A DNA stretch of 64,000 nucleotides from a phage, in assembly GCA_025611195.1 (NCBI GenBank), contig GCA_025611195.1_4718.1; one strand, given 5' to 3'. The notes beneath the pieces are model-generated. The model searched no databases. It was not told the DNA's origin and worked only from the letters and a program-made list of their open reading frames with translations. Both the position numbers and the translations under genes were made by a program. This document shows positions 19,906-64,000 of this stretch, piece after piece. Positions within the stretch are counted from its first letter, which is position 1; each line of letters starts with the position of its first letter.

Positions 19906-19916
19906 TCATTAGTTAA

Positions 19917-19935: not shown

Positions 19936-19954
19936 TCTTCTTGAGGAATGTTAC

Positions 19955-22096: not shown

Positions 22097-22112
22097 TATT
22101 CACTGCATAAAC

Positions 22113-22144: not shown

Positions 22145-22150
22145 AATATG

Positions 22151-23218: not shown

Positions 23219-23256
23219 CACGTCCTCCTGAAAAAGAAAAAAGAAATACGGCATAA

Positions 23257-23284
23257 AGCCTACCCACACAATGGTGGGTAGGCT
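23257..23284 (-). terminator. intrinsic terminator
   Basis: Stem AGCCTACCCAC/GTGGGTAGGCT followed on minus strand by a T-rich tract. Confidence 0.55.
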
Positions 23285-23300
23285 AAGATCAACATCGATG

Positions 23301-24325: not shown

Positions 24326-24406
24326 GGCATCACCTATGTATCATTCTTGCAGGCATCAATGAAACCATCACAAGAAGGTAACGTTATACGTCGCCTTCAT
24401 GACAGT

Positions 24407-24427
24407 CATCATGAAGGTAATATAGTC
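24407..24427 (-). promoter_or_regulatory. early-promoter-like motif (21-nt GACTATATTACCTTCATGATG)
   Basis: Identical 21-mer also at 50903..50923; minus-strand gene start at 24325. Confidence 0.5.
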
Positions 24428-24458
24428 CTGTTATTTTTTTCAATACGGAGAATGTAAA

Positions 24459-49682: not shown

Positions 49683-49724
49683 CGATGATCTCTCTTTGTT
49701 ATTTCTACCGATAACTCGGCATAA

Positions 49725-49742
49725 GGGGACAATGATGTCCCC
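49725..49742 (-). terminator. GGGGAC-N6-GTCCCC hairpin
   Basis: GGGGAC-AATGAT-GTCCCC between stop of 49752 gene and start of 49682 gene; sibling at 47990..48007. Confidence 0.4.
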
Positions 49743-49751
49743 ATGTTCATG

Positions 49752-50042
49752 TTAACTCCCTCTGTGGCATGAAAACAGAGCGTCTAATTGCTCCCGTTGT
49801 TCTTTTAAGTATGCGGGAAGCTGGTCTTCCCGTACCGTTCCGATTTCCAACGTGATGTACCAGCGTTGTTCGGAAGCCTGCCATTGAAAACTGCTCTGTA
49901 ACCTCAGGATGTTGGGATCGTGTACCATGCTTGCGCTGTAACGGTTGAACCAATTCAGGTATTCTGCTTTCCCTTCCTCGTCGGCAACGTAACGCTGCAC
50001 GCTGTTCTTCCCTTTGTTCTCGTATCCTGTTGCACGTATCAT
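49752..50042 (-). CDS. hypothetical protein (about 96 aa)
   Basis: Frame chosen over overlapping Arg-rich frame 49747..50091. Start ATG 50042 overlaps upstream stop (ATGA). Confidence 0.45.
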   Translation of the reverse strand: MIRATGYENKGKNSVQRYVADEEGKAEYLNWFNRYSASMVHDPNILRLQSSFQWQASEQRWYITLEIGTVREDQLPAYLKEQREQLDALFSCHRGS

Positions 50043-50821
50043 GCGAACGTTTCTCCTGTAACGTGTTGTGGGCGTTGTAGCATGGTAGCATCCCATTGTA
50101 CGATCCGGCTCCGGCTTACCCGCATCATGATGGATTCATCGTCAAGCCCTGGTTGCACAACCGGTAACCAACGTTCGTTAAGCACCTTCGCTTCAACCCG
50201 TTTCTTGCGTGGGTTGTAACGCACCTCGCTAACCCAAGCGAATCCAAGCGGATGGACCACCCGTGGATAATACATGCGAAGCAATTGATGCATCCGATCC
50301 AGTACCTCCAGGTCAGCATCGGTCAGGTATGGTTTCACCATGGTAAGCTTTTTGGTGTAATACGTTCCGGTGGTATGATTGATCCAACCAGGAAGCACGT
50401 GATGGAACCCTACCTGTAATGGCGTATCCCCGTTCACCTTCAACCAACCGTATCGCCCTGTCGCACGTCCCTCATCGTAAGCAACTTGTGCAAGCTGATC
50501 GATGAACGCACGATCGGTGATCTCGATGCGTTCCACCCGTTCATCCAACGCACCGCGTACCACGAATCCGCTCGCGCTCATCCGCGCAGGATGCTGGCTG
50601 CGATGCGCGTACCAATTCTTGTTGCCGGTAAGCAGGTAAGGGTACGTGTGAGCACCCCGCCAAACAACCGTTCCGTTCGTCCCATCAACACAGTGTACAT
50701 ACATCCCATCTTGACCGTTGTTGTAGCATGCTACCTTCACGCATTCGTTTTGAACATCGCTCGGTAACGCCAGGTATTCACCTTCGGTAAACATGGTATC
50801 AAAAATGATTTCGTCGTTCAT
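50039..50821 (-). CDS. hypothetical protein (260 aa), paralog of 48849..49682; predicted early gene
   Basis: Paralogous C-terminal block; CTATATTACCT motif about 80 nt upstream. Confidence 0.55.
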   Translation of the reverse strand: MNDEIIFDTMFTEGEYLALPSDVQNECVKVACYNNGQDGMYVHCVDGTNGTVVWRGAHTYPYLLTGNKNWYAHRSQHPARMSASGFVVRGALDERVERIEITDRAFIDQLAQVAYDEGRATGRYGWLKVNGDTPLQVGFHHVLPGWINHTTGTYYTKKLTMVKPYLTDADLEVLDRMHQLLRMYYPRVVHPLGFAWVSEVRYNPRKKRVEAKVLNERWLPVVQPGLDDESIMMRVSRSRIVQWDATMLQRPQHVTGETFA

Positions 50822-50902
50822 CTAAAAAAGATCCTCTGTTTTTCACGTTAATTAAACAACGTATTGATTTCTATTTAACGCAATACGAACATTGTACGTA
50901 TG

Positions 50903-50923
50903 CATCATGAAGGTAATATAGTC
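50903..50923 (-). promoter_or_regulatory. early-promoter-like motif (21-nt GACTATATTACCTTCATGATG)
   Basis: About 80 nt upstream of ATG 50821, at the edge of the AT-rich non-coding region. Confidence 0.5.
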
Positions 50924-51064
50924 GTGAAAGGATTTGCATTAAAGCAAGGGTTTTGTTTTAAGAAGGGATGGATTTAGAAGAGGTGTTTCAAGGAAGGTAA
51001 ACGAGGATAGGTATTTTGATTTAAGTAAGATGTTATCTGTATTTGTTAAAAGTGTATTGTCTAT

Positions 51065-51396
51065 GTTATCTTGTTTATCTTAGGTTATGTCTTATTGTTT
51101 AATCGTTTTATCTTTGTAGGTTAAATTGTTCTAGTTATCTTGTTGTATAAAGTAATTCAATAAGCTTATCTTCAAAATGATAAATAACTTGTGTTTATTG
51201 TACATGCTAATCAAAAAACCATTTGTGATACTCTTCTTCACGTTGTTCATCAGAGTATCTCGTCTATACTCATTGCATTCGTATACGACATAACCGTTAT
51301 ACGCTAACGCTACGCTTATAGCTTGATAACTCTAAGGATAAAAACATAAACTCGCTTCGCTCGTTTAGTTTTTCTTTTTCTTAGAGTTATCTTGTT
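51065..51396. repeat. iteron-like direct repeats (A)GTTATCTTGTT(G) in AT-rich non-coding region
   Basis: Three copies at about 51065, 51134 and 51386; no ORF of 60 aa or more in this region. Confidence 0.4.
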
Positions 51397-51557
51397 GCTC
51401 GTCTCTAAAGGACTTCGCTCCTCCCCCGTCCCCCGAAGGGGCCGAGGTCGTGGAAATTTTACTTTCCAAATACATTTACAACATCTGTAAACTTTTACTC
51501 CAGGTACTTAATCTTATCATTAGAAATTATAAAGAGAAGAATAAACACAAACATAAA

Positions 51558-51589
51558 CCTTCCTCCAACCCAACAGGGAAGGAGGAAGG
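51558..51589 (-). terminator. family-A palindromic hairpin
   Basis: Stem CCTTCCTCC/GGAGGAAGG, loop AACCCAACAGGGAA; T-rich tract follows on minus strand. Confidence 0.5.
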
Positions 51590-51602
51590 GGATTAATTAA
51601 AA

Positions 51603-52496
51603 TTATTCGGAAACGTTGTAACCGAATACCGCTTTACCGTAGGTGTGAGTACCGTCAGCTAATGACAGCACCAACACGTGGTTGTACGTAGCGTTAACGC
51701 CTTTATCGGTGGAATCGGTGGTAGCACCGTTATAGACGAAAGTAGCCGTTTGCAGATTGGCTTTCAGCTCGGTGATGATCTCGTCGCCCACACCCGTCTG
51801 CTCTTTGATCAGCGTGGTCAGGTTACCTGCCAGGCTTTCATCGATCTTGGTTTCGTTACTGGTAATCGCCTGTAAACCTGCGGTGTAGGTACTGAAGTCT
51901 AACGGATAGGTTAACAGACGCGCTGAGGTCTTGGTGCCATCGCCTTCATCAACGTAGGTTAAGTTACCCAGGTTGGTAACCTTGATGATGTTGGACAGAT
52001 CCAGCGTGGTGTTATAAACCTTAACTTGAACAGAACCGTACCAAGCCAGCGAATCTTCTTTGGCTTTCAGGGTGATCGTCTGGATACCATGATCGTCGAA
52101 GGTAACCGGCGTAGCTAACGTATCGGCTTTGATGTCTTTCGCTTTATCCAGGAACTTCTCACCGGAAGGTGTGATCATACCGTAGCGTTGAGCTACAAGG
52201 TCAACCACATCACCGATGGTGGTGTTTTTATTAACGTTAACGCGTACGGCGATCTTCTGGAACCACTTAGCCAGATCCAGACGATGATAGGTAACATCGC
52301 GGTCATTGAAGTAAGGAGTACCTTCACCAGGGCTAAGCGTTAAAGTTGCATCTGGAGCAGAATCGCTTTTGGATTTAAGAACGTATTTAAGGTCGGTGGG
52401 TTTGAAGTTGGCACCCGTATCGGCGTTGAGTGTGTTAATCTCATCAACGATAAGTTGCCAAGGTGTTTTTAAAGTAAGTGATACTTGAGCTGTCAT
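51603..52496 (-). CDS. hypothetical structural-type protein (297 aa)
   Basis: N-terminal region homologous to 52643..53185 (YFNDRDVTYHRLDLAKWF vs FYYDRLALSEVF; TIGDVVDLVAQRYGMITPSGE vs SIKASELVSKLVTKFGLASLTGE). Confidence 0.55.
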   Translation of the reverse strand: MTAQVSLTLKTPWQLIVDEINTLNADTGANFKPTDLKYVLKSKSDSAPDATLTLSPGEGTPYFNDRDVTYHRLDLAKWFQKIAVRVNVNKNTTIGDVVDLVAQRYGMITPSGEKFLDKAKDIKADTLATPVTFDDHGIQTITLKAKEDSLAWYGSVQVKVYNTTLDLSNIIKVTNLGNLTYVDEGDGTKTSARLLTYPLDFSTYTAGLQAITSNETKIDESLAGNLTTLIKEQTGVGDEIITELKANLQTATFVYNGATTDSTDKGVNATYNHVLVLSLADGTHTYGKAVFGYNVSE

Positions 52497-52533
52497 TTTC
52501 TTCCTCGATGGTTGTTACATTACTCTCAAAAGA

Positions 52534-52547
52534 TGTAAACGTTTACA
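52534..52547. promoter_or_regulatory. palindrome TGTAAACGTTTACA in divergent promoter region
   Basis: Perfect 14-bp dyad followed by TATATATAAAATGTAAATACTATG upstream of 52643..53185. Confidence 0.3.
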
Positions 52548-52642
52548 GAAATTAATATATCTTTATATATAAAATGTAAATACTATGGAGAACGACTCCG
52601 ACTCTCCTTTTCGACCATCAAAAAATCAGAGGATACATAATC

Positions 52643-53185
52643 ATGGCCTTAGACTTTAACAAAGCAGCCAAATCCCTTCTGCTTGATCTTATCAACACCA
52701 AAGCAACCCGCCCACTGACTGAAGAAGAACTGCAGTTCGGTACTCCGGGAGCATCTTCCGAACATGAAAAGAACACCGTTATCCAGCTGGATGCTGCAGC
52801 TGAAGCAGCTAACCTGCAGGGTACTCAGCAGTTCTACTACGATCGTCTGGCTCTGTCCGAAGTTTTCGCTGATGTAACCAGCGATGTTACTTTCGAACTG
52901 CCGCACGGCACTGACAGCATTAAGGCTTCCGAGCTGGTAAGCAAGCTGGTCACCAAATTCGGTCTGGCTTCCCTGACCGGTGAAATCAATGAAGAAACCT
53001 TCCAGCTGTCTGCTGGCACTGTTGGTGAAGTAACCCTGACTGCGATCGAGGGTGGTCTGGTATATACCGGCACCCTGCAGGTTGCACTGACCTACGCACC
53101 AGCACCGAAAGACGAACTGGCAACCGTTCTGGCGAATAACGTAGCTGAAGGTTTCGTGAAACCTGAAGTTGCTGTCGTTGGCTAA
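52643..53185 (+). CDS. abundant small protein (180 aa), probably virion-associated
   Basis: Strongly host-optimal codon usage (CTG, GGT, ACC, TTC, GAA) unlike neighbours; GAGGA RBS; strong stem-loop immediately after stop. Confidence 0.65.
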   Translation: MALDFNKAAKSLLLDLINTKATRPLTEEELQFGTPGASSEHEKNTVIQLDAAAEAANLQGTQQFYYDRLALSEVFADVTSDVTFELPHGTDSIKASELVSKLVTKFGLASLTGEINEETFQLSAGTVGEVTLTAIEGGLVYTGTLQVALTYAPAPKDELATVLANNVAEGFVKPEVAVVG

Positions 53186-53194
53186 TAAGCACGT

Positions 53195-53234
53195 AGAGCA
53201 ATAGTATGGGTTTTGTACAGCTCGGCTATTGCTC
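53195..53234 (+). terminator. stem-loop after highly expressed gene
   Basis: 10-bp stem AGAGCAATAG/CTATTGCTCT with 20-nt loop, 10 nt after stop of 52643..53185. Confidence 0.4.
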
Positions 53235-53384
53235 TTCTACAATTTGGTTGTAACAATCTGCGTGGTTGCACGCTTATCTTTCTCAATGAGCGCTTCATAC
53301 GAAGCGTGGTGTTGAAAGGGTTGTGGATCTCCTCAAGCGGCCAGGGACCCAGACCAACCTGAATAAACACAAACACATGTTAAG

Positions 53385-53416
53385 CCCCTCCTCATCCGTT
53401 ATTGGGTGGGGAGGGG
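53385..53416. terminator. CCTCC-type hairpin in convergent intergenic region
   Basis: CCCCTCC ... GGAGGGG stem in the 290-bp non-coding gap. Confidence 0.35.
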
Positions 53417-53479
53417 TCTTATACGTCTTTATGCGTTCCGTTCGTTCTGGAGCGTTTTAGGACGGTTTATGATGGTGTT

Positions 53480-54115
53480 TTACTCAACACTGAACCCGTT
53501 CAAGATGATCGCTTCATAACGCTTACGTTCACGACGTTTGCGTGCCTGCCAACCGTAGATGAATTTCTCATCTTTCTCGCGTCGCTCTGCTAACTCGATG
53601 TAATAAGTGCTCTGCATATCCAGCATCGCATCGATGAGATAATCCTTACCGGTTGCACCACGCTTAGCGATGTATGCGTCGAGCGCGCTTAACGTCGCAG
53701 GTCCCATCAAACCGTCGGCGTTGATATTTTTCCAGTAAGTTTGGCGGTTGTTCATGACGTTCAGATAACGCTGGAGGTTCTTAACCGGAACGGTTTTGCC
53801 TGCGTTGATACCCAGGTCAAAGAGACGATCAGCCAAGAACACGGAACGTTTCATGACCTCATCAAGCTTCATCTTATCCCAGAAGTGGGTCTTGTAGATA
53901 AAGAACGCCATTTCCGTGGTAAGGTTACGCATGTTACCGTCCCAGCCGAATTTCGTTTTCAGCGTGGTTTTGTATTGATCGGCGAGTGTTTTCGTAATGC
54001 CGTGGTTCGTGATTCCGCCCGAATCATCGGGATCGTCGACGTAACCTGCTTCGATGCTAGTTTTGTCACGAATTATGAATTCGCAAGTAAAATCTTTTTC
54101 AGTAATCTTAGCCAT
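53480..54115 (-). CDS. endolysin, GH108-type muramidase with PG_binding_3-like domain
   Basis: SIEAGYVDDPDDSGGITNHGIT matches the GH108 EGGY...GG.T.YGIT signature; INADGLMGPATLSAL matches the peptidoglycan-binding motif. Confidence 0.65.
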   Translation of the reverse strand: MAKITEKDFTCEFIIRDKTSIEAGYVDDPDDSGGITNHGITKTLADQYKTTLKTKFGWDGNMRNLTTEMAFFIYKTHFWDKMKLDEVMKRSVFLADRLFDLGINAGKTVPVKNLQRYLNVMNNRQTYWKNINADGLMGPATLSALDAYIAKRGATGKDYLIDAMLDMQSTYYIELAERREKDEKFIYGWQARKRRERKRYEAIILNGFSVE

Positions 54116-54157
54116 TAGAACTCCTCATTTAAATAACGATTTAGAGGAACAGGAAGG

Positions 54158-54237
54158 GTCTAGAACGCGATAAACGATTTAACCCAGGCAAACCCTAGAT
54201 TAAACTTTTCGAAGCGTTACAACGCGTTCTAGAACGC
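54158..54237. promoter_or_regulatory. inverted repeats TCTAGAACGCG ... CGCGTTCTAGAACGC upstream of endolysin gene
   Basis: 11-bp inverted repeat pair 53 bp apart; the distal copy is a self-complementary 14-mer. Confidence 0.35.
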
Positions 54238-54241
54238 TGAA

Positions 54242-56290
54242 TTAAATACCCTTGGTTCCTTTCACGTGATGTGCAATTTCTTCAACCATTGCACGCAGGG
54301 CACGAAGTTGTTGGTCGTGTTCATACCAACCGCCTAACAGAACCCCGCTATACACCATGGTGTCAAGACTTAACAGCCCTTTATCTGATACGTTGATCAT
54401 TTCCGGGAACTGTTCTTGAACACGCTGTGCGATAACACCGATCTTCTCGACATCAGGATCGTAGTTGTGACGGAAACGAGCGAGTCCGCTATGTGCCATC
54501 TCACGTAAACGATCACTGAAAGATTCCGGATGGTCTTTCAGATAACGGATGTCATGTTTACTGCGTTCATCAGAACGGATGTATGCGTTAGGAACATCGA
54601 TGTTGCTGTTGAAGTACAGCGCACTACCGCCACCGGCAGAGTTCCCCCAATAGAAGCTGGTTAAGATGCTACCCCCGTTACCTGTAACGTGCACCGTGCT
54701 GCCTACACGGGTTCCCCCACTACCATCAACGAAGACAAGCTTGTTCCCGCTGTAAGAACCCCAGAACAAACGGCTGTCGATGATGTTTGTTGCAGCGAGG
54801 CGAGCGTTACGTGGTGTAGAATACACGGTGTTAACATCTTGCTGTGCTTGCGCATCGGAAGCGATACCGTAGTTCTGAACATTCCCTAAGCCTACCTGGG
54901 CTTTGTTAACGGCGTGAGGGTTATCCCGACGGTTAGCGTGAGCATTAACCAGATCGCCCGCCAGTTTTTGAATAGCCCAGTTGGTAGATTGTGGCGTCAT
55001 ATAGCGGTTAGTTGCAGAACCACCTTGCGCTTCAGCTTGGTTAGCAGTTGGATAGTTCTCAACGCTTCCCAACCCTACCTGTGCTTTAGACACTTGGTGC
55101 GGGTTGTTCTTGTCGGCGATGTGCGCATTAAGCGGAACTAACGCGAAGGTCTCAATGGACGCTTTGGTGGTGTTCGGTGCCATTAATCGGTTAGCTGCAA
55201 CACCCGCACGCGCTTCTTCTTCAGAAGCCATCGGATAGTCTTGCACATTCCCTAACCCAACCTGCGCCTTGGTTACTCTGTGTGGGTTGTTGTAATCGGC
55301 TTTATGCGCATTAAGTGGAATCAATGCGAACTGTTCAATCGCTGCAACGGTACGTAGCGGTGTCATGAAACGGTTGTTCGCTGTTCCGGCTTTCGCCTCA
55401 TCATCCGAAGCGGTCGGGAAGTTATCAACGTTCCCAAGGTTAACCTGTGCTTTGGTGACGCTATGTGGGTTATCTCGACGGTTAGCATGCGCGTCGACTA
55501 GATCGCCCGCCAGTTTAGCAATCGCCCATCCAACCGTCTGTGCTGTCATGTATCGGTCAGGTGCGGTACCGGCTTCTGCCTCCGCCTTGTTTGCGGTAGG
55601 ATAGTTCTGTACGTTACCTAGTCCGACTTGGGCTTTTGTTACTTCATGCGGGTTATCGGTACGGTTAGCGTGCGCGTAATGCAGATCGGTCAGATCTTTA
55701 TCCGCTGCTTGCATGTCTTTGCGTAACTGATCGATTGCCGCCCAGAGACGGTTATCGGACGCAGCATCACCGATGAGTATTGCGGCTTTTAGCGAATAGA
55801 TCGCTAAGCAAAGATGTTCGGTACCGTAGATAGCACTAACGTGGTGGATGTGTGGTTCAGGCGGATAAAGTTCCGGTTTGTTCTTGATGTCGTCCCAGTT
55901 GATCGGACGATCGTCAAGTTTGAGTTCTTCGATAGCCTGATACAACGCATCAATAAGACTTACGTAAACACCACCGATGATACGATAGTCGTTAACTAAT
56001 GTACCCTCGATGTCATCGTTGATGATGGCGATGGCCGCACAGATTTCTTTACCAGCGTAAAGCGTAGCGTCCTGATACAAGAAAATGGGTTTGTAATCCA
56101 CGCCGCGTACCAGTGTCTTACCGGTAAGCTTTTCGGTGATAACCAGACTTTCGGTGAAGAACGGTCCGCCATCGAGGGCGTAACATTTATTCTCGGTTCG
56201 TGGAACGGTGTGCTCTTCACCAACGATGTGGTTGCTATCGAGCGTGCCGGTCCAGTCCTCGGGGTACTTCAGGGTAATTGGTGTTGACAT
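54242..56290 (-). CDS. tail fibre protein with NPHxVTKAQVGLGNV repeats and C-terminal S74-like chaperone domain
   Basis: Five tandem repeats of about 57 aa (phage tail-fibre repeat). C-terminal RSDERSKHDIRYL resembles the S74 intramolecular chaperone motif. Confidence 0.75.
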   Translation of the reverse strand: MSTPITLKYPEDWTGTLDSNHIVGEEHTVPRTENKCYALDGGPFFTESLVITEKLTGKTLVRGVDYKPIFLYQDATLYAGKEICAAIAIINDDIEGTLVNDYRIIGGVYVSLIDALYQAIEELKLDDRPINWDDIKNKPELYPPEPHIHHVSAIYGTEHLCLAIYSLKAAILIGDAASDNRLWAAIDQLRKDMQAADKDLTDLHYAHANRTDNPHEVTKAQVGLGNVQNYPTANKAEAEAGTAPDRYMTAQTVGWAIAKLAGDLVDAHANRRDNPHSVTKAQVNLGNVDNFPTASDDEAKAGTANNRFMTPLRTVAAIEQFALIPLNAHKADYNNPHRVTKAQVGLGNVQDYPMASEEEARAGVAANRLMAPNTTKASIETFALVPLNAHIADKNNPHQVSKAQVGLGSVENYPTANQAEAQGGSATNRYMTPQSTNWAIQKLAGDLVNAHANRRDNPHAVNKAQVGLGNVQNYGIASDAQAQQDVNTVYSTPRNARLAATNIIDSRLFWGSYSGNKLVFVDGSGGTRVGSTVHVTGNGGSILTSFYWGNSAGGGSALYFNSNIDVPNAYIRSDERSKHDIRYLKDHPESFSDRLREMAHSGLARFRHNYDPDVEKIGVIAQRVQEQFPEMINVSDKGLLSLDTMVYSGVLLGGWYEHDQQLRALRAMVEEIAHHVKGTKGI
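54850..55660 (-). repeat. intragenic tandem repeats encoding NPHxVTKAQVGLGNV modules
   Basis: Five units of about 170 nt; recurring DNA blocks such as TTCCCTAACCCAACCTG.GCTTTGGT.AC. Confidence 0.7.
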
Positions 56291-56303
56291 AACCTGGAGG
56301 TCC

Positions 56304-58907
56304 TTATAACGTGACTGTACCTAATTTGGTTGTCTTATTGAGATTGATGACAGAAATCTGGGTATCGCTGGTCGTAATCGTCCCGATGTTAACGCGCTGC
56401 CCTTTATCATCTTCTTGCTTGTGGATGGTTAACTCCAATTCTAACTGGTCGCCATTAGGAACAACGGAAACGTACCATGTTTTATTACCTGGTGAGCTAT
56501 TATAGTCTTTTAGGTTATAATGGCCTTTAGGTAGGGTCATGACTTTACCAGCAAACAAGCAAGTGATGTCTTCGTTGATGTAGATATCGTAACCGGAAGC
56601 AGCAACGACCGTAGAAACCATGTAACGGTTTTTAACAGCGAGAGCTTTATATTCCGCAACGGAATTGCCGACAACACTAAAGACTTGACCGCCATTACCC
56701 ATCACCGTAGAGACTGCGGCATCAACATAACCGATTCCCCACACCGGATGTACGTTCCAACGATAGCCGCTTGACTGTAGGTAAGCATACAAACCTTCAA
56801 ATGCGATGGTTGTCCAGTTCCCATCGTTTTGTCGTCCAGCTCGGAACTGATAGGTGTTCTGGTTCCCTGCAGACTGACGTAAATACGGAACATGTCCAGC
56901 AACAAGCCACCCATCACTCACCTTCTTGTAAGCTAATACACCCCAGGCGGCATTCTGACTGTAGATATTTGTTGAATCGGGGTCTTCGACATAACCCAGC
57001 AGTTTGGTTACGCCCGTCACCGTAATAGCGCCTTTACGTGCGGATACGGTAACCTCCGCAGCGATTCGTCCATGTACGCGTGTGCTGGTATTACAGCCAG
57101 CAACAAACAGAATACACGGTGCGTTTGTACCATCTGGAGGTACGGCTAACGCATGCTGCCACCGACTGACGCCAGACACCTTGTTTCCGGTATATGCGTT
57201 CCACACGAGCTGTCCGCCTGCTTGCAGGTTGGCTGCGGTTATGCTGATGGCTTCACCGGAAGGTGCGAGTTTGGTGGCGTCGTATCCGATTTTACCGGAT
57301 AAGTTTGAATCAGTTAAATAAGACCCGCTAACTACCGTATTGTCATCGCTTAAATGTACGGTTAGGAAAGGTCGCGACATTTGACCTGCGCTAACCACCA
57401 CGTTGTTGGAAGGCGGAAAACCGTAAACGTCAATACCTTCTCCCTGATAACGGTAATCGAGATTCCAGTCATAGGTCACTAGACGAGCCTCAAAATTACC
57501 CTGTCCACCACCCGTACGTGAGTTAACGAAAACCTTGTTTTTAGAAAAGAAACCCAGGTAACCATGGGACGCGAGTGCACCTACGATGCGATCCCCGACG
57601 TTTTTCCAGTATGAGTCGTACTGTATTCCACCAGTAGGACCGAGTTTGGCGAGTTCGTCGAACACATTTCCAGAGAAACCGTTGATGGTGTACGATCGCG
57701 CTTGGGGGGCGGATAAATTGTCGTTTTGGATAATGGCTACCTGACCGCGTTCGTTGATTTCGATATTCCCGGTACCGTTACCCGAACGCCATTGCCAGAA
57801 ACCATCGTTATACTCACTTGTTCCATCGGTTGTAGTAGATGGTCCTACCCAGTCTATCCCGCTATCTGTTGACACGTATGTGGATTGTCCAGCGCCCGGG
57901 TTCATGCTGTAACTGTTGTTGGCGGTTTCAAAATCGAGATAGAACTGATGTAGCCCGTTCTTTTGCTGGTTTTTGCGGTTGTTCGTCCACCATGCCGAAG
58001 CAATCAGAATACGTGCTTTAGTACCTTTGGTTGCTGCGAGCATACGAATCTGAGCACGCCAGACGGTTTGACCGATCCCATCAGAAGGGAAATCGTTAGT
58101 AGTTATGCGGTTGCAGACAATCATCTCGGCACTGTTGCTTATCGCCGTTCCTTCTATCGTTCTACCGCTAATATTCGTAAGCTGTGTAGCCGCTACGCTG
58201 CCACCGCTGGGACCGATGGAAGATTTGGTTACGGTATAAACATTTAAGTAGAGTTTATAACTGTTAGTGCCAGCGATAGCGATGTAGATTTTACCGTTAA
58301 TTTCCCAACAGCAGATATGCGGTGATGTATCAACAAAGTTGGCAAGACTACCATCAAGATACATGGCGACATGTTTGGATGCGTCAAACGTTCCGTCTGT
58401 CAACGCGATAAACATTTTAGGGCTGCTACCGTCTTCAAAAGCAGCTTGACCTAACATGATACCGTTCTGGTGACAGTATATCACCGTAGGAATACGATCG
58501 AGCGTTGCGGGCTCATAGCGGCGGCTGGTTGGAATAACTTCAGTGATCTGTCCGTTTTGATTTGTTTTACAGATAACGTAGTAAACCCCTTTCTTTACGC
58601 TGTTCGTTGCCGAACGCAGTAACACGATGGTACCATCGGATTCACGGCATACGCCGTAACGACGGTATTTGTCGTTTAGACAGATAGCACCATCAGCGGA
58701 GCCTTCGATTGCCAGAGGAAAATAACTTTGATCCCCAACCTGTTCGATATCGGTTACGCCGATATCGATGTATTTTTCCATCTCGGTGTCGAACTCAGCG
58801 GTACTATAGGCACCGAGATCGCTCGCCTTTAGTCCCGTTGGGTTGTCGCGACTGGCGATACGTGTATTAACGCTACTCACCAGTTCACTGAACTTTTTCA
58901 TTGCCAT
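56304..58907 (-). CDS. tail fibre / tailspike-like receptor-binding protein (867 aa)
   Basis: N-terminus RDNPTGLKASDLGAYS is a degenerate fibre repeat; Gly/Ser/Thr/Asn-rich body; sits inside the fibre operon. Confidence 0.6.
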   Translation of the reverse strand: MAMKKFSELVSSVNTRIASRDNPTGLKASDLGAYSTAEFDTEMEKYIDIGVTDIEQVGDQSYFPLAIEGSADGAICLNDKYRRYGVCRESDGTIVLLRSATNSVKKGVYYVICKTNQNGQITEVIPTSRRYEPATLDRIPTVIYCHQNGIMLGQAAFEDGSSPKMFIALTDGTFDASKHVAMYLDGSLANFVDTSPHICCWEINGKIYIAIAGTNSYKLYLNVYTVTKSSIGPSGGSVAATQLTNISGRTIEGTAISNSAEMIVCNRITTNDFPSDGIGQTVWRAQIRMLAATKGTKARILIASAWWTNNRKNQQKNGLHQFYLDFETANNSYSMNPGAGQSTYVSTDSGIDWVGPSTTTDGTSEYNDGFWQWRSGNGTGNIEINERGQVAIIQNDNLSAPQARSYTINGFSGNVFDELAKLGPTGGIQYDSYWKNVGDRIVGALASHGYLGFFSKNKVFVNSRTGGGQGNFEARLVTYDWNLDYRYQGEGIDVYGFPPSNNVVVSAGQMSRPFLTVHLSDDNTVVSGSYLTDSNLSGKIGYDATKLAPSGEAISITAANLQAGGQLVWNAYTGNKVSGVSRWQHALAVPPDGTNAPCILFVAGCNTSTRVHGRIAAEVTVSARKGAITVTGVTKLLGYVEDPDSTNIYSQNAAWGVLAYKKVSDGWLVAGHVPYLRQSAGNQNTYQFRAGRQNDGNWTTIAFEGLYAYLQSSGYRWNVHPVWGIGYVDAAVSTVMGNGGQVFSVVGNSVAEYKALAVKNRYMVSTVVAASGYDIYINEDITCLFAGKVMTLPKGHYNLKDYNSSPGNKTWYVSVVPNGDQLELELTIHKQEDDKGQRVNIGTITTSDTQISVINLNKTTKLGTVTL

Positions 58908-58919
58908 TATTCACCTCGA

Positions 58920-59405
58920 TTAAATAGGCGAGTCGGGAAGCTGACCATCATCGATCTCGATGGCGGCCACCTTACGTGTCGCAGCAAGATGTGATGTACC
59001 CTGGACTTTGTTCCAGGTACCGATACGCATGGTGTTTTTGTAGCTGCTATCGCTATCGTTCAGCGTGTAAACAAAACCGCTATCGGTTACGGCAAGATAG
59101 ATCCAGCCTACAGACTCACTGATACCCGACACGTCCAAAGTTGTTGCTGGCACCGTCCCTACCACCGTGTTGTATTCCGCTGTACCTTGGCCAATGCTGA
59201 TCCGCCCGTTGCTGTAACTGGCTGCCGGAAGCGTTTTATTTCGACTGAAGAAAAGAAACGGAAGGTAACGCTGGGTAACAAGCGGTGCAAGTTTAGGAGC
59301 CACTTCGGTCTTAGTGTAGACATCTGTTTGTTCTGGCGTTACCTCGTGAGGGTTCTTTTGGGTAAGATACGTTCCCCATTCAGAAAGCAGTGTTGATAGC
59401 TTCAT
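58920..59405 (-). CDS. short tail-fibre-like protein (161 aa)
   Basis: N-terminus QKNPHEVTPEQ shares the fibre-repeat motif. Confidence 0.5.
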   Translation of the reverse strand: MKLSTLLSEWGTYLTQKNPHEVTPEQTDVYTKTEVAPKLAPLVTQRYLPFLFFSRNKTLPAASYSNGRISIGQGTAEYNTVVGTVPATTLDVSGISESVGWIYLAVTDSGFVYTLNDSDSSYKNTMRIGTWNKVQGTSHLAATRKVAAIEIDDGQLPDSPI

Positions 59406-59409
59406 GCGG

Positions 59410-59919
59410 TTACCCCATGTAACGTTTTTGGCCGAGGATGAAGACTTTGTTAAATACCACCGAAGTGATTCCTGATGCGTTACAGCTTACCTGCCCGACG
59501 CGAATTGCTGTTGACGTATCGACCCCAGCACTACTCTGCCAGCTCCAATCAATCGATCCGTCTTTCTGATGAATGAAAAGATAACCGGTTTTGTTCGCCC
59601 AGTCGGAAGTAAGATTTTTGATGTCTAACGTTCCTTTCGCCAGAATATAGTCGGTACCGGCGATCATGACGGGGATTTCAGGATACGAGATTACCGTACC
59701 GCTAGCGGTAACGTTGCTGATGCGATCACTACGGATATCGGTACAATCACCGAAATACGCTACGGGGAGTATCCCCTTAGGTAGCTTTTTGTCGATTCTC
59801 GTATCGATCGTGCTTTTATCGGGTGCGTCGATTTGCGCTGCAGTGACTTGGTTAGGGTTATCCTTCCTTGCATACCACGTCGTCATGCGAGCACCCAACT
59901 CACTCATTTTTGTGCCCAT
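59410..59919 (-). CDS. short tail-fibre-like protein (about 169 aa)
   Basis: N-terminus RKDNPNQVTAAQ fibre-repeat motif; ORF-track start 59925 is GTG, ATG at 59919 preferred. Confidence 0.5.
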   Translation of the reverse strand: MGTKMSELGARMTTWYARKDNPNQVTAAQIDAPDKSTIDTRIDKKLPKGILPVAYFGDCTDIRSDRISNVTASGTVISYPEIPVMIAGTDYILAKGTLDIKNLTSDWANKTGYLFIHQKDGSIDWSWQSSAGVDTSTAIRVGQVSCNASGITSVVFNKVFILGQKRYMG

Positions 59920-59953
59920 TTTCACGTCCTATCGAAAAATAAAAAGAAGGAAA

Positions 59954-59970
59954 GGTGGGTAGAACCCACC
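59954..59970 (-). terminator. intrinsic terminator after tail-fibre gene
   Basis: GGTGGGT-AGA-ACCCACC followed on minus strand by TTTCCTTCTTTTTATTTTTCG. Confidence 0.55.
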
Positions 59971-59976
59971 CATCCA

Positions 59977-62130
59977 TTATAACGTTTCGAAGTCTTTTGC
60001 CTTGATGACCGCGTTGAAGTTGGCAAGGAATTCCTTAAGTAATGCTTGGAAAACATCGCGGAACGCCGCGTTCGTCTTCAAGCTGGTTAAATAATCGTTC
60101 TTAAGGTAATCACTAAGCTTACCGATCTTCTGCATTGTCACGCCTTCATCGTTCTCTCCGGGTTCCTGGCTATTGATATTAGCCCACTTGATCCCTTCGA
60201 GATCGCCATCAGCAAGGAAGTTAGCTGGCGTCTCATCATCGTTAAGGATTTTGATCGTGTCGCTGGATTCAATACCACCGTAAGCTTCCAGAAGCTGGTT
60301 GACGGTCAACTTATTGACGTTGATTGAACCATTAGCACCATCGATACCGAGTCCGGTACCCGTGATAGACGTTGCTGAAAGATCGATTGGTCCGGTTAAC
60401 TTACCCCCATTGATAGGGAGCGCACCGACTTGTTCGGCTGTGTGCGTGTGATCTGCTAACGCCGCGAACGCTGCAATCGACTTGTAAGTCGAGTACGGTG
60501 TCATGTACGCCGTCTGGTTAGTCCTGTCAGCAGCTTGCACATCGGTGGCGACAGCAAAGTCCTGTACGTTCCCTAACCCCACTTGTACCTTGGTTACTTC
60601 ATGCGGGTTACTCTTATCGACAACGTGTGCTGCAAAACCATCACCTGCTAAAGCGATGATCGCTGCTTTTGTCGCAGCCGGTGTCATATAGCGGTTGGTC
60701 GCTACACCTGTTTGCGCTTCCACATCAGAAGCAACAGGGTAGTTCTCAACACTCCCCAACCCAACCTGGGTTTTCGTTACCCTGTGCGGGTTCTCGGTAT
60801 TTGCGATGTGGCTACTGAACCCTTGACCAGCCATTTGCTCGATCGCGTAACGAACAAGTATTGGTGTCATGTACTTGTTGTTAGCCTGACCGTCGATCGC
60901 TTCTTGGGTAGTAGCAACCCCAAAGTTCTGCACACTTCCCAGACCGACTTGGGCTTTTGTCACCCCATGCGGGTTATTGGTGTTACCGATATGTTCGGTT
61001 ACGGTTGGGGTGATTAACGCTGCGATAGCGGCGGCTGTGGTCGCAGGCGTCATGTATTTGTTGTTAGCAACACCCGCACCAGCTTCCCCATTAGACGCTA
61101 CACCATAGTTCTGTACGTCCCCCAGCCCTACCTGTGCTTTCGTAACAGCATGAGGGTTGTTATTATCCTCGGTATGGGTTGTTAACGTAGCGTTGACATG
61201 ATCGATGCGTGTACTTAAGCCGTCCGTGATTGCCTTGATTGCTGCTCGTACACCCGCTGGAGTCGTGTACAGATTAGTGGCTGTACCGGTAACGGTTGTA
61301 TTATCATCGGCTACACCGTAGTTCTCAACGTCTCCGAGTCCCACCTGGGCTTTGGTCACCTTGTGTGGGTTGTTGCGGTTACTGATGTGTGCGGCGGCAC
61401 TATCACCACTAAGGTTAGCGATCATCTTGCGCGTCATCGCCAACGTCATGTACAGATTTTCACCGACAGTTTCCAGATCGCTCTCAGTCGCTGTTGTGAA
61501 ATTCTGCACATTCCCTAAGCCCACCTGGGCTTTCGTAACGCCGTGGGGATTATCGCGTCGATTCTCATGCTGTACTAACGCAGTCATTGCTTTATTGAAC
61601 CCTTCTTCAAGCGGTTCTTTCAATGACTCGATTGCAGCCACCACATCGTCCCACGTCATTGTGTCGGTTTCGACATTATGTTGGTGGTTGATTGGTGGGA
61701 ATACAGAAGGAACGTCGGCAACCTTTTCCCAGAACGTAACACGAGGATCGTAAAGGTTGTTGGCTAAAACGTTAAGAATTTGTTGTTGATCAAGTGTAAA
61801 CTCACCCCCCAGTGAATAGTAGTTCAGTTGCAACTGTCCACTGAATGCGGTGTCCAACAGCATGATGGAACCGTATAATTCCAGGCCGGTCAGCGCAGCC
61901 ATGGCACGGAAGGGGTGAGTGCATAAAAAGTCAACGCCTTCTTCCAGATACGCGTTTGTTTCAGGGTTGTAGATCTTTAACCCATTACGAAAATAGGGTG
62001 CGTATTTAGGAACGAGAAAGTTAAATCCGGTCCCCGTGGAAGGACGGACAGTGACGAGTTCTTCTGGAACCCATGCGCCATCCAAATTCCCCTGCGGGTT
62101 ATACGGAAGGCGTTTAATTTCATCTGTCAT
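59977..62130 (-). CDS. tail fibre protein with six NPHxVTKAQVGLG repeats
   Basis: Six tandem repeats; N-terminal region similar in layout to 54242..56290; no S74 domain; followed by hairpin plus T-tract. Confidence 0.75.
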   Translation of the reverse strand: MTDEIKRLPYNPQGNLDGAWVPEELVTVRPSTGTGFNFLVPKYAPYFRNGLKIYNPETNAYLEEGVDFLCTHPFRAMAALTGLELYGSIMLLDTAFSGQLQLNYYSLGGEFTLDQQQILNVLANNLYDPRVTFWEKVADVPSVFPPINHQHNVETDTMTWDDVVAAIESLKEPLEEGFNKAMTALVQHENRRDNPHGVTKAQVGLGNVQNFTTATESDLETVGENLYMTLAMTRKMIANLSGDSAAAHISNRNNPHKVTKAQVGLGDVENYGVADDNTTVTGTATNLYTTPAGVRAAIKAITDGLSTRIDHVNATLTTHTEDNNNPHAVTKAQVGLGDVQNYGVASNGEAGAGVANNKYMTPATTAAAIAALITPTVTEHIGNTNNPHGVTKAQVGLGSVQNFGVATTQEAIDGQANNKYMTPILVRYAIEQMAGQGFSSHIANTENPHRVTKTQVGLGSVENYPVASDVEAQTGVATNRYMTPAATKAAIIALAGDGFAAHVVDKSNPHEVTKVQVGLGNVQDFAVATDVQAADRTNQTAYMTPYSTYKSIAAFAALADHTHTAEQVGALPINGGKLTGPIDLSATSITGTGLGIDGANGSINVNKLTVNQLLEAYGGIESSDTIKILNDDETPANFLADGDLEGIKWANINSQEPGENDEGVTMQKIGKLSDYLKNDYLTSLKTNAAFRDVFQALLKEFLANFNAVIKAKDFETL
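60500..61560 (-). repeat. intragenic tandem repeats encoding NPHxVTKAQVGLG modules
   Basis: Six units, homologous at DNA level to those in 54850..55660. Confidence 0.7.
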
Positions 62131-62234
62131 GATGCGCCCTTTACAAGTTGTTAGTAAGTGTGGGATACCCTGGGGTATCCTGTGTTAACAGCGGTAAAAT
62201 ATTACTGTAACTATAAAATAAGGGGGCCTCTCCC

Positions 62235-63515
62235 ATGTATACATTGGTAAAAACTTACGGATTACCCGTAGGTTCCGGCACGGCCTGGACAGCACTTGAG
62301 GCGGGTGAAAGTGTCCTGAGTACGTTGTTCTCAGCGTATCAAAAACTCAAGATCCAGGTTCATGAAAGCTATGCTGACCAGCAACAAGTTATTGATCTGT
62401 ACACATTTCAATCCGAGCTTCAAAACAGCAATGACACGCTCAATGCGTGGTTGAAAGCGAAATCGGATGCGCACACCAACCTTCGAGGACAGCCTGGTGA
62501 GCTGTCGATTAAAACCCACAAGCTTTATTGTCACGACGTTATTACCGTAGGCTTTCTCCCTAAAGTCGGTAATAGCGGTTATCATCCGAGCAACGCGATC
62601 CCTGAGTCGGAACGTACCGATATCCTGTTGACGAAAGCGGATACGAATTACGAAAATATCGGCAAACATTGCTTGTTCACCGTAGGCGGTTATGTTCATC
62701 CTCATGTTTACGGTAAAGACGTCGGTGTCTATATCCAGGGTGGGTTCGAGACAGCACAGCGTAGCCAAGAAAACGATATCGGCATGATTGATTTTAGTCG
62801 TATCGGGAGTTTGGAAATCCACGCTATCACAGAAGAGATGCTTGCTGATTCCACGAAGCTCTTGCCGTATAAGGACGAGATGTACTTACGGCTACCACGC
62901 AAGGTCGCCGAAGATGAAACCGTCGCGCTTGTGTTCGGGGGATATCTACACCTTCTTGACGATTGTTACACGATCGTTAGTGACACGACGGCAAAAATAA
63001 ACTGCAGAAACATGTTTCTGTATGAAAGATACTTCCGCTCCCGCAAATACCTTGATTTAACGTCTCTTGGTATTCTGTTGAACGAAGAAGACCCGCAGTC
63101 CGATATTGTTGCCAATCGTTTACTGTCTGATAAGACTTTAAAAGCATGGGTGACACACCCCTGCAGTTTCTGGGTGTATATCAAAGCAACATCGATTCAG
63201 GTTACACAAGAACCTTTACCACGAAGTGGTGTACCAGGACAATATTTCTTAGGTAAGAAACCGGAAGGACTGATTCGAGCTGACCTCGGTGAGTTACCGG
63301 CTTACGTGCAGACCTATGAAAAACCGTTATGGGTACTTCACTCACGCTGGGGACTTCGTAAGAACATGTTGTTTGAAAACACGTTGTACAAACATACACG
63401 CGTTAAGCGGCTTAACGATACACCTTATCTTCACCAGGTCTGGTTGGAAACGCACGCGACGTTGCAGACAGTACATAAGCTCGAATTGATCGATTCCAGT
63501 CAGAAAAACAAATAA
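62235..63515 (+). CDS. hypothetical protein (426 aa), possibly tail/baseplate-associated
   Basis: ORF divergent from fibre operon; AAGGGGG RBS. Confidence 0.5.
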   Translation: MYTLVKTYGLPVGSGTAWTALEAGESVLSTLFSAYQKLKIQVHESYADQQQVIDLYTFQSELQNSNDTLNAWLKAKSDAHTNLRGQPGELSIKTHKLYCHDVITVGFLPKVGNSGYHPSNAIPESERTDILLTKADTNYENIGKHCLFTVGGYVHPHVYGKDVGVYIQGGFETAQRSQENDIGMIDFSRIGSLEIHAITEEMLADSTKLLPYKDEMYLRLPRKVAEDETVALVFGGYLHLLDDCYTIVSDTTAKINCRNMFLYERYFRSRKYLDLTSLGILLNEEDPQSDIVANRLLSDKTLKAWVTHPCSFWVYIKATSIQVTQEPLPRSGVPGQYFLGKKPEGLIRADLGELPAYVQTYEKPLWVLHSRWGLRKNMLFENTLYKHTRVKRLNDTPYLHQVWLETHATLQTVHKLELIDSSQKNK

Positions 63516-63525
63516 ACAAACATAA

Positions 63526-63557
63526 CCCTCCTCCAACCCATCAGGGAAGGAGGAGGG
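63526..63557. terminator. family-A palindromic hairpin (reverse orientation)
   Basis: Stem CCCTCCTCC/GGAGGAGGG, loop AACCCATCAGGGAA. Confidence 0.5.
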
Positions 63558-63566
63558 AATATGTTG

Positions 63567-64000
63567 TTATGCCACGTATAACGTTAGATAACCGTCGATG
63601 AGCGTATTCATCACACTGAGTTGAAGTACAACAGCTTTACGAGCGTCTGTACGTACACCAAATGGTAGTGTTTTGAAATGCTCTGGATCGGCTATTACTT
63701 TCGCATTCTGCAAGTTGAGCGGTCCAGGTATTGACGACAATACCCAACGATCGTTGGCCGTAAGACCGTCGATCTCTTCAGAGAGACCCAATTGCAGTGC
63801 GTTCATTTCTGCGATTAATGCCTCCGATTGTGTATCACCTGAGGTTAACGTATACCCATCAGTAAGTGACGTTAGAACATCATCAGACATGAACCAGTTG
63901 TACGAAACAATAGCGCCTGGGAGTTTATCACTATCTCGATCGATGAGATAATTCAACCCAGCCAACATATTGTTGCGAATGAGGTTGTTGAGGTCGTTAT
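63567..64000 (-). CDS. hypothetical protein, 5' end truncated by window edge
   Basis: Reading frame stays open upstream of the ORF-track Met at 63968 through to position 64000. Confidence 0.45.
   Translation of the reverse strand, partial: NDLNNLIRNNMLAGLNYLIDRDSDKLPGAIVSYNWFMSDDVLTSLTDGYTLTSGDTQSEALIAEMNALQLGLSEEIDGLTANDRWVLSSIPGPLNLQNAKVIADPEHFKTLPFGVRTDARKAVVLQLSVMNTLIDGYLTLYVA

Follow-up and report, generated by a model that had tools for sequence, protein, structure and literature searches.

Chimalliviruses, nucleus-forming phages such as the Escherichia coli jumbo phage vB_EcoM_Goslar (hereafter Goslar), are of interest for therapy because the phage nucleus shields them from many bacterial defences. 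The host-recognition apparatus is the least resolved part of their virion. Here we analysed a cluster of five genes for fibres and fibre-related proteins, which lies at positions 54242-62130 of a 64,000-nucleotide (nt) stretch of phage DNA (contig GCA_025611195.1_4718.1; the whole stretch is called the window). Its open reading frames (ORFs) encode proteins of 717, 171, 161, 867 and 682 amino acids (aa). We propose that the region is probably the peripheral-baseplate fibre module of a Goslar-like chimallivirus of E. coli/Salmonella, with the 867-aa protein, whose centre is predicted to be of beta-propeller type, as the main exchangeable receptor-recognition unit.

Fibres of this kind have been described in phiKZ and Goslar. 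phiKZ carries twelve peripheral fibres, which are docked beneath gp130 via six gp131-like N-domains from paralogues (PMC13250141). In Goslar, gp25-gp29 were all found by label-free mass spectrometry of purified virions (10.64898/2026.04.21.720040). gp25 and gp29, both labelled tail fibre, were estimated at ~87 (58-136) and ~75 (50-118) copies per virion, gp26, gp27 and gp28 at ~13, ~14 and ~14 (each 8.5-22), and gp30 at ~18 (10.64898/2026.04.21.720040). The authors of this cryo-electron microscopy study considered it likely that gp25 and gp29 belong to the tail fibres or the peripheral baseplate (10.64898/2026.04.21.720040).

The window closely resembles this part of Goslar. Positions 54242-62130 show 91.7% nt identity to 18462-26350 of the Goslar genome (NC_048170), which encode gp25-gp29. 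The five proteins are 93-97.5% identical in aa to these orthologues, and a neighbouring 426-aa protein is 98.1% identical to gp30. A preliminary description of this DNA had proposed a multi-fibre adsorption apparatus, a proposal that hung on the five proteins being virion proteins. All five Goslar orthologues are present in purified virions; virion membership is taken here from these orthologues and not from this phage itself. The proposal is supported by the orthology with gp25-gp29, the virion peptides, gp131-type N-domains in two of the proteins and a gp130 homologue next door.

Organization of the fibre gene cluster

The five ORFs are arranged head to tail on the minus strand and, in the order from the 717-aa to the 682-aa gene, are separated by gaps of 51, 4, 12 and 13 nt. 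The preliminary description had listed these ORFs, and their positions were recovered unchanged. The ORFs, their predicted parts (with the method by which a part was delimited, where one applies) and the adjoining gp130-like gene are as follows.

62235-63515, plus strand: 426-aa gene, homologue of Goslar gp30 and phiKZ gp130, divergent from the fibre genes (blastp)
59977-62130, minus strand: 717-aa fibre ORF
61597-62130, minus strand: 717-aa fibre, gp131-type attachment domain and first long helix, aa 1-~178 (tblastn, blastp, AlphaFold2)
60451-61596, minus strand: 717-aa fibre, shaft of six 61-aa helix-NPHxVTKAQVGLG modules, aa ~179-560 (module hidden Markov model)
59977-60450, minus strand: 717-aa fibre, C-terminal domain, putative distal tip, without S74, aa ~561-717
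59410-59925, minus strand: 171-aa ORF from GTG; 169 aa from the ATG at 59919, as in the Goslar annotation
58920-59405, minus strand: 161-aa ORF
56304-58907, minus strand: 867-aa ORF
58668-58907, minus strand: 867-aa protein, conserved N-terminal helix and NPx adaptor module, aa 1-~80
56643-58667, minus strand: 867-aa protein, all-beta propeller-type centre, hypervariable cassette, aa ~81-755
56304-56642, minus strand: 867-aa protein, conserved C-terminal domain of ~110 aa, common to the 171-aa protein
54242-56290, minus strand: 682-aa fibre ORF
55703-56290, minus strand: 682-aa fibre, gp131-type attachment domain, aa 1-~196 (blastp, PHROG 2163)
54776-55702, minus strand: 682-aa fibre, shaft of five 61-aa NPH modules, aa ~197-505 (module hidden Markov model)
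54575-54775, minus strand: 682-aa fibre, short Gly-rich distal tip from the last module to the S74 cleavage site, aa ~506-572
54242-54574, minus strand: 682-aa fibre, C-terminal Peptidase_S74 chaperone, aa 573-682 (Pfam PF13884)

The 171-aa ORF is counted from a GTG. In related loci and in Goslar, the gene is annotated or called from the ATG two codons downstream (168-170 aa), and the real product is probably 169 aa.

The two long fibres

The N-termini of the two long proteins connect the cluster with phiKZ. By tblastn, the N-terminus of phiKZ gp131 is matched by the initial 200 aa of the 717-aa protein (29% identity, E 2e-22); 289 phage records match this part, most of them from chimalliviruses of Pseudomonas, Erwinia, Salmonella, Vibrio, Serratia and Aeromonas. 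Compared by blastp, the 717-aa protein matches gp131 (E 4.6e-44) and the 682-aa protein matches gp135 (E 1.7e-30) and gp131 (E 1.1e-29). The gp131-type N-domain (~180-200 aa) was thus found in the 717- and 682-aa proteins; it is missing from the 867-, 161- and 171-aa proteins. The AlphaFold2 (AF2) model of the 717-aa protein has a beta domain at aa 17-106, with a predicted local distance difference test score (pLDDT) of 86-92. Furthermore, the 426-aa protein matches phiKZ gp130 (E 3.6e-26) and gp16 of Erwinia phage RAY (E 1.8e-27) by blastp. A fibre gene therefore stands beside a divergently oriented gp130-like gene, and the arrangement is alike in phiKZ (L005) and RAY (L009). The two long fibres would dock under the gp130 homologue via their N-terminal domains.

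Beyond the shafts, the two fibres differ. Homologues of the 717-aa protein number more than 1654 at E <1e-10. Their similarity typically extends over ~78% of the query, as far as the shaft reaches, and family members carry diverse C-terminal Pfam domains after it. The C-terminal domain of the 717-aa protein itself has no Pfam or PDB sequence match, and its AF2 model is of low confidence there. The 682-aa protein ends in Peptidase_S74 (PF13884; aa 573-631, 25.2 bits against a gathering cut-off of 22, E 2e-5), and Pfam found no Peptidase_S74 in the other four proteins, in agreement with the earlier statement that only the 682-aa fibre has an S74-like SDERSKHDI chaperone motif. S573-D-E-R-S-K578 lies at position 1 of the S74 profile. 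In addition, the C-terminus weakly matches that of the phage S16 long tail fibre (6f45), with the SD.R.K.DI motif aligned; an L18e match in the PDB sequence searches with the 682- and 717-aa proteins was rejected as spurious. The Ser...Lys spacing in SDERSK fits the cleavage site of the S74 chaperone family, in which these two residues are the catalytic pair.

Removal of the chaperone can be compared with virion peptides of Goslar gp25, the orthologue of the 682-aa protein. In the part of the alphabetical peptide table from A to ~D, four checked peptides of the mature part are present, and AMVEEIAHHVK and DHPESLSER, which lie downstream of the predicted cut, are absent; these are two peptides only. 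Their absence is consistent with removal of the S74 chaperone. The short tip upstream of it would be folded by the chaperone, which would then be cut off. This tip is also variable: 13 of the 22 aa differences between the 682-aa protein and gp25 are within aa 501-550, and nt identity to Goslar falls to 82% in the tip. The 682-aa tip may be a second specificity element.

The variable core of the 867-amino-acid protein

A search with the 867-aa protein gave 28 homologues of 864-867 aa and one 523-aa fragment, with identities between 99% and 34%. Their alignment is strongly conserved over the first ~110 and the last ~110 residues and variable in between. The N-terminal module is the most conserved part, with many residues invariant even at 34% overall identity. 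The C-terminal domain is 93-96% conserved in homologues whose core is only ~50% identical.

The AF2 model of this protein (mean pLDDT 73) is all-beta from aa 84 to 730, mostly at pLDDT >80. Its Foldseek neighbours are tandem and single beta-propellers, and the core of the predicted model has a beta-propeller fold. The top structural neighbours, at 7-10% sequence identity, include GH43, GH130, GH32, sialidases and the endosialidase of phage phi92, and the propeller region is of lectin/sialidase/GH43 type. In a viral structure library, full-length matches with template modelling (TM) scores of 0.6-0.72 were virion structural proteins of Serratia phage BF, Erwinia phages PhiEaH1 and Joad, Pectobacterium phage CBB and Salmonella phage SEGD1. 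Furthermore, tblastn found full-length homologues of ~23% identity in the unrelated Rak2-like jumbo phages PBECO4, 121Q and 7t3. We also compared the core with the propeller of phiKZ gp131; direct blastp gave nothing, and homology is not claimed.

In a genome-wide screen, the Goslar receptor is listed as 'LPS, GluII', LPS being lipopolysaccharide, with galU, hldE and waaF among the hits. An LPS receptor fits a glycan-recognising protein. The 867-aa protein is the likeliest candidate for the glycan-binding host-range determinant, a role that the preliminary description did not contain. Since many of the top structural neighbours are GH43, GH130, GH32, sialidases or the phi92 endosialidase, the protein could instead be an enzyme, that is, a depolymerase of surface glycans or a glycosidase, and not a passive adhesin. 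We consider this unlikely, as the identity to these enzymes is 7-10%, no Pfam glycoside hydrolase (GH) or sialidase family was found, and the LPS dependence of Goslar reaches the inner core (hldE, waaF) on laboratory hosts without long polysaccharide.

Exchange among relatives

Comparison with related loci showed where the cluster varies. The locus L002 is a 236-kb contig in the Salmonella Enteritidis assembly GCA_014829495.1. Between the window and L002, aa identity is 99.3% for the 682-aa protein, 99.6% for the 717-aa protein, 99.5% for the neighbouring endolysin and 98.6% for the gp30 homologue. For the 171-aa, 161-aa and 867-aa proteins it is 93.5%, 83.9% and 52%, respectively. A blastn alignment of the two breaks off at 58565 and is taken up again at 56624; both points are within the 867-aa gene, where its conserved ends border on the core. 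Against L006, identity falls to 64% for the 867-aa protein and stays at 93-98% for the others. The common genes of the window and L002 differ by ~3-7% in nt, and almost all of these differences are synonymous; therefore, the two are not recent recombinants, and the exchanges are old and maintained by purifying selection. A diversity-generating retroelement was also considered as the source of the 867-aa variability and rejected: the whole 650-aa core is replaced instead of carrying point changes at adenines, and there is no reverse transcriptase nearby.

Other parts are exchanged as well. In a sliding comparison with Goslar, the window diverges mainly in modules 2-6 of the 717-aa protein and the start of its C-domain (81-86% nt), in the 682-aa tip (82%) and in the endolysin (86%). 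In more distant relatives, N-domains and modules are retained (50-80% identity), and the tips are replaced. In L004, a 682-type gene directly follows the 717-type gene. In L007 (2038-6949) and L008 (1395-6308), the 717-type fibre has Invasin_D3/Big_1 (Ig-like) domains at its end. S74 is absent from the 682-type fibre, and the next gene encodes a separate 197-aa protein that weakly matches Phage_tail_APC, a tail-fibre assembly chaperone. In these two loci, the intramolecular chaperone appears to be swapped for a trans-acting one. To judge from these alignments, the exchanged pieces are the 867-aa propeller core (with the 161-aa gene), the distal tips, and the block of 717-aa modules 2-6 with the start of the C-domain. 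Exchange junctions lie in conserved gene ends or directly after the last module. This suggests that exchange takes place between phages at gene and domain borders and not via intragenomic repeats.

A different reading is that the 867-, 161- and 171-aa proteins are structural connectors or braces without a receptor role and that the long fibres alone set the host range. The low and equimolar copy number of the three proteins and the extreme conservation of both ends of the 867-aa protein agree with such braces. The tip is the most variable stretch of the 682-aa protein against Goslar, and distant relatives swap fibre tips (Invasin_D3, separate chaperone), as expected if the long fibres set the host range. 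However, a pure brace is unlikely to own the most variable core of the cluster (52-64% identity against >92% in its neighbours), and the predicted fold of this core is typical of lectins and glycosidases. In addition, the full-length homologues in unrelated Rak2-like phages of the same host group fit a host-related module better. On balance, a brace without a receptor role seems improbable, and we favour the 867-aa core as the main receptor-recognition unit.

Goslar-like contigs and proteins were also found in NCBI assemblies labelled Salmonella enterica serovar Enteritidis, and of two 867-aa variants, one represents 326 sequences and the other 56. This suggests that Goslar-like phages commonly accompany or infect Salmonella besides E. 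coli.

Paralogy of the 867-, 161- and 171-amino-acid proteins

The preliminary description had claimed that the 867-, 161- and 171-aa proteins each begin with a degenerate copy of the module that is repeated in the long fibres. A module hidden Markov model (HMM) was searched against 475 stop-to-stop segments of the window. The best non-self matches were the 171-aa (E 0.004) and 161-aa (E 0.09) proteins, and the 867-aa protein was not found in this search. Families built with orthologues from six related loci were then compared profile to profile (hhalign). The fibre module matched the 171 family at P 5.8e-7, the 161 family at P 1e-4 over 12 columns only, and the 867 family at P 3e-3, which is weak taken alone. 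The N-termini also match each other (867 and 171, P 5e-9 over 57 columns; 171 and 161, P 8.5e-7). Thus, the claim holds for the 171-aa protein and is backed by the mutual homology of the N-termini, but the direct match is confined to 12 columns for the 161-aa protein and is weak for the 867-aa protein.

The degenerate module of the 171-aa protein is DNPNQVTAAQ, which follows an N-terminal helix and precedes a C-terminal beta domain; that of the 161-aa protein is KNPHEVTPEQ (aa 17-26). The modules of the three proteins are without both invariant His residues of the fibre module (H-6 and the NPH His), except that the NPH His is kept in the 161-aa protein. The N-terminus of the 867-aa protein also matches phiKZ gp132 (110 aa, a single module) by blastp at E 1e-4.

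The homology of the three is not restricted to the N-terminus. The full-length 171 and 161 families align over 114 columns (P 1.5e-10, hhalign probability 96.9%), and the last ~100 aa of the 171-aa protein share homology with the last ~105 aa of the 867-aa protein (P 2.4e-8). Positions 888-971 of PHROG 3573 match both the 867- and the 171-aa proteins. None of the three has a Pfam (E up to 10) or NCBIfam family. From the homology at both the N-terminus and the C-terminus, the 867-, 161- and 171-aa proteins are one paralogue family with both ends in common, of which the 867-aa member carries an insert of ~650 aa. In RAY, the bodies of these proteins occur fused to N-domains, so the three proteins are best read as N-domain-less paralogues of gp131, that is, as gp131-family proteins that lost the attachment domain. 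The paralogy beyond the N-terminal motif is new relative to the preliminary description. The three would join the fibre base through their N-terminal helix-NPx modules, like phiKZ gp132-gp135.

The three proteins might also assemble with each other. In a 1:1:1 heterotrimer, held together through the N-terminal modules and the C-terminal domains, they would form a one-propeller, pseudo-threefold fibre, and one such heterotrimer would be mounted at each of about 12 fibre sites beside trimers of the long fibres. The Goslar copy numbers of gp25, gp29, gp26, gp27 and gp28, at ~6:6:1:1:1 by mass spectrometry, argue for it. In addition, phiKZ has 12 fibre sites of mixed paralogues (PMC13250141). The invariant His pair is present in every long-fibre module and mostly missing from the three proteins, which also speaks for this arrangement; as a speculative corollary, metal would be bound by the paired His along the threefold axis in the true fibres. 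Six homotrimers of each protein (18 copies) are within the error of mass spectrometry, and we regard the heterotrimer as rather unlikely.

NPH modules and their DNA

The preliminary description had counted five and six tandem NPH repeats in the 682- and 717-aa proteins, and this count was reproduced. A regular-expression scan for NPHxV[TSN]K.QVGLG and the HMM agree on five modules in the 682-aa protein, starting at aa 213, 274, 335, 396 and 457, and six in the 717-aa protein, starting at aa 194, 254, 325, 386, 447 and 508. The period is 61 aa, or 183 nt, and the HMM built from the copies scores 57-65 bits for each. Among 38 family members, H(-6), N, P and H of the module are invariant in most modules and nearly so in the rest, and L and V of GLG.V are invariant or nearly so.

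The AF2 monomer of the 717-aa protein shows, in every module, a helix of 21-30 residues ending at the first His, an irregular NPH...GLGNV stretch of ~25 residues and a short helix. Thus, we infer that the shaft is a segmented helical one, probably a trimeric coiled-coil, with NPH...GLGNV knots. The module has no Pfam (E up to 10), NCBIfam or solved-structure match (717- and 682-aa queries against PDB), and a full-text literature search for the GLGNV motif string gave no relevant phage paper. In PHROG, the module occurs in ~25 families, whose annotation is tail fibre, tail collar fibre or minor tail protein.

The repeats had also been described as conserved at the nucleotide level. Copies can indeed be detected in the DNA: a repeat search recovered them in register at 183-nt spacing, at only 60-88% identity over 34-131 nt, and over 34 nt of the module core, all 11 copies and the 171-aa gene can be recognized at 62-88% identity. 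The conservation was overstated, however. Over whole 156-nt (52-codon) units, the 55 pairs are 42-67% identical in nt (mean 54%) and 33-63% in aa. At identical amino acids, the same codon was observed 566 times against 517 expected from the codon usage of the cluster, a ratio of 1.10. Synonymous sites are thus saturated, and codon sharing is alike for unit pairs within a gene and between genes. The longest exact word in two copies is 18 nt, and shuffles of the region give 11-14 nt. Tandem Repeats Finder reported no array in the fibre genes (50000-64000), and long near-identical DNA tracts, as in recombinogenic repeats, were not found among the copies. Because synonymous sites are saturated and exact words do not exceed 18 nt, the DNA similarity is what protein conservation alone yields, and the repeats are a poor substrate for homologous recombination. 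The DNA resemblance is, as far as these comparisons go, the footprint of protein conservation on an old duplication, and no homogenised DNA is seen.

These results bear on the model of the preliminary description, in which the five proteins are independent homotrimeric fibres and the nucleotide repeats serve as substrates for shuffling modules within and between genes. That model accounts for a module core that is detectable in the DNA of 11 copies and the 171-aa gene (62-88%, 34 nt). Module number also varies by lineage: phiKZ proteins have 1-3, and the L007 fibres have 5 and 6 in reversed order relative to the window. The best alignment of the 682- and 717-aa proteins is offset by two modules (50% identity over 238 aa), and divergence between the window and Goslar is greatest in modules 2-6 of the 717-aa protein. 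Nevertheless, shuffling through repeats is hard to reconcile with the synonymous saturation, the 18-nt longest match and the negative Tandem Repeats Finder result. The module numbers 5 and 6 are unchanged in the window, Goslar and the Goslar-like L001, L002, L004 and L006, despite divergence to ~50% aa identity, and it is the 867-aa gene, which has no repeats, that shows the strongest mosaic breakpoints. As for five independent fibres, the 161- and 171-aa proteins are too short for fibres, and their modules are without the invariant histidines. We therefore consider this model very unlikely. What stands of the idea that modules shuffle by recombination is that relatives are mosaic in the cluster; the exchange is found at domain borders, the repeats share no more than 18 nt of identity and the 5/6 copies are stable.

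Proposed model

In the model that we favour, the region encodes a peripheral-baseplate fibre module. Each module of the two shafts would be built of two helices, first a long and then a short one, with an NPH...GLGNV knot between them. One or more propeller domains of the 867-aa protein, of glycan-binding or glycosidase type, would be held between conserved ends that act as assembly interfaces. The propeller would be the main exchangeable unit for glycan or receptor recognition, the receptor of Goslar being the LPS outer core. The module would diversify through whole-domain exchange between related phages at conserved borders and not through the ancient internal repeats.

Several points weigh against this model. 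The Goslar virion has mostly been solved, and the peripheral baseplate ring and tail fibre density were left unassigned by the authors (10.64898/2026.04.21.720040). Copy numbers from mass spectrometry are good to about +/-50%, and the preparation also held the non-virion assemblies chimallin and PhuZ (10.64898/2026.04.21.720040). The phiKZ fibre-base assignment consists of predicted models fitted into a 4.4-4.6 A map (PMC13250141). No Pfam or NCBIfam GH, lectin or sialidase family was found in the 867-aa protein even at E 10, so the assignment is to a fold class and not to a family. Its AF2 model is a monomer, and the propeller likeness is at fold level only (7-10% identity); the match of its N-terminus to the fibre module is weak taken alone (P 3e-3). 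The AF2 model of the 717-aa protein is likewise a monomer, with pLDDT 64 and a predicted TM score (pTM) of 0.26, so that the module structure is tentative. Finally, the LPS dependence of Goslar singles out none of the five proteins as the LPS binder.

If the model is true, the 867-aa core between its conserved ends is a natural swap unit for changing host range and would be useful for engineering. The analysis also supplies a parts list for the unassigned Goslar density: a platform of gp130 type, two fibres of gp131 type whose shafts have 5 and 6 modules, and three equimolar truncated paralogues. It corrects the idea that internal repeats drive shuffling. Most worth following are the three truncated paralogues and the hypervariable propeller cassette.

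Neighbouring genes and noncoding sequences

An 'endolysin' gene with GH108 and PG_binding_3 domains lies at 53480-54115 on the minus strand, 126 nt downstream of the 682-aa gene, and is among the more divergent genes against Goslar (86% nt). Its orthologue, Goslar gp24, is present at ~76 copies (51-120) per purified virion, a fibre-like level (10.64898/2026.04.21.720040). The protein may be a virion-associated peptidoglycan hydrolase, instead of or besides a lysis enzyme.

Two DUF7941 proteins are encoded at 51603-52496 (minus strand) and 52643-53185 (plus strand; Pfam E 9e-52 and 6e-21, respectively), and they are orthologues of Goslar gp22 and gp23. In Goslar these are present at ~580 and ~2140 copies and were proposed to form a baseplate-anchored 'fibre cloud' (10.64898/2026.04.21.720040). 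The host-recognition neighbourhood would therefore reach beyond 54242-62130.

Positions 50822-51602 (781 nt) are without an ORF of at least 50 aa and have 33% GC, against 47% in the window. This segment is kept with indels in Goslar and L002 at 81-87% identity; blastn found nothing in the distant L004 and L007, and there is no Rfam match. The segment may have a regulatory role or act as a promoter.

A terminator-like hairpin, GGGTGGGTTCTACCCACCT, followed by a T-rich tail, is found at 59953-59971 (minus strand), within the 51 nt that separate the 717-aa stop codon from the beginning of the 171-aa gene. It could attenuate read-through, which fits the ~6-fold lower Goslar virion copies of the three downstream proteins. 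The hairpin does not account for the high level of the last gene, that of the 682-aa fibre. Rfam gave no match in 49000-64000. A sigma-70 promoter scan found 9 sites against 13.5 in shuffles; for a phage with its own RNA polymerases, such a scan is not meaningful.

Comparison with known systems

Goslar gp25-gp30 (NC_048170, 18462-27735) are direct orthologues in equal order and of equal lengths. The window belongs to another phage strain, in which the 717-aa gene is only 81-86% identical in nt over modules 2-6 and 13 of 50 residues of the 682-aa tip are changed. The Goslar annotation lists three of the five genes only as hypothetical, and its fibres are structurally unassigned.

phiKZ gp130-gp135 are alike in having gp131-type N-domains, NPH modules and a divergent gp130 platform gene. 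They too are a paralogue set with a common proximal part and differing distal parts, in which gp131 has a beta-propeller and the small paralogue gp132 consists of a helix and an NPH module only. By the same HMM, three modules were counted in gp131, two in each of gp133-135 and a single one in gp132, so phiKZ proteins carry 1-3 modules, whereas the window fibres carry 5-6. Four phiKZ proteins have the N-domain against two in the window, where the propeller protein and two small paralogues are without it. No S74 chaperone tip was seen in phiKZ gp131-135, but the 682-aa protein has one. Sequence identity between phiKZ and the window is only ~23-31%.

In Erwinia phage RAY (Agricanvirus), gp16 is gp130-like and gp17 consists of the N-domain and one module. 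gp18 has the N-domain, a module and the C-domain of the 171-aa protein; gp19 has the N-domain, a module and an 867-type body, and gp20 has a helix, a module and an 867-type body. This is an intermediate design. RAY differs from the window in that gp18 and gp19 carry a full gp131-type N-domain ahead of their 171- and 867-like bodies and in that there are no long multi-module fibres.

The K1F endosialidase and T5 pb1 have, as generally known, a C-terminal S74 with a Ser...Lys pair, as in SDERSK of the 682-aa protein. The part upstream differs: the 682-aa protein has a helix-NPH shaft and a 67-aa Gly-rich tip, and no endosialidase or pb1 shaft. Rak2-like jumbo phages (phiKp24, the PBECO4/121Q group) are alike in carrying several distal proteins on one baseplate, and PBECO4, 121Q, 7t3 and CBB encode full-length 867-aa homologues of ~23% identity, annotated as hypothetical or structural. 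These phages belong to another family, without a demonstrated gp131-type N-domain context.

In summary, judged from its sequence, the cluster represents the fibre module of phiKZ gp130-gp135 in the form that it has in the Goslar lineage, a relationship that the preliminary description lacked. The kind of cluster was already known from Goslar gp25-gp30 and phiKZ gp130-gp135; the paralogy of the 867-, 161- and 171-aa proteins and the hypervariable propeller cassette of the 867-aa protein are new.

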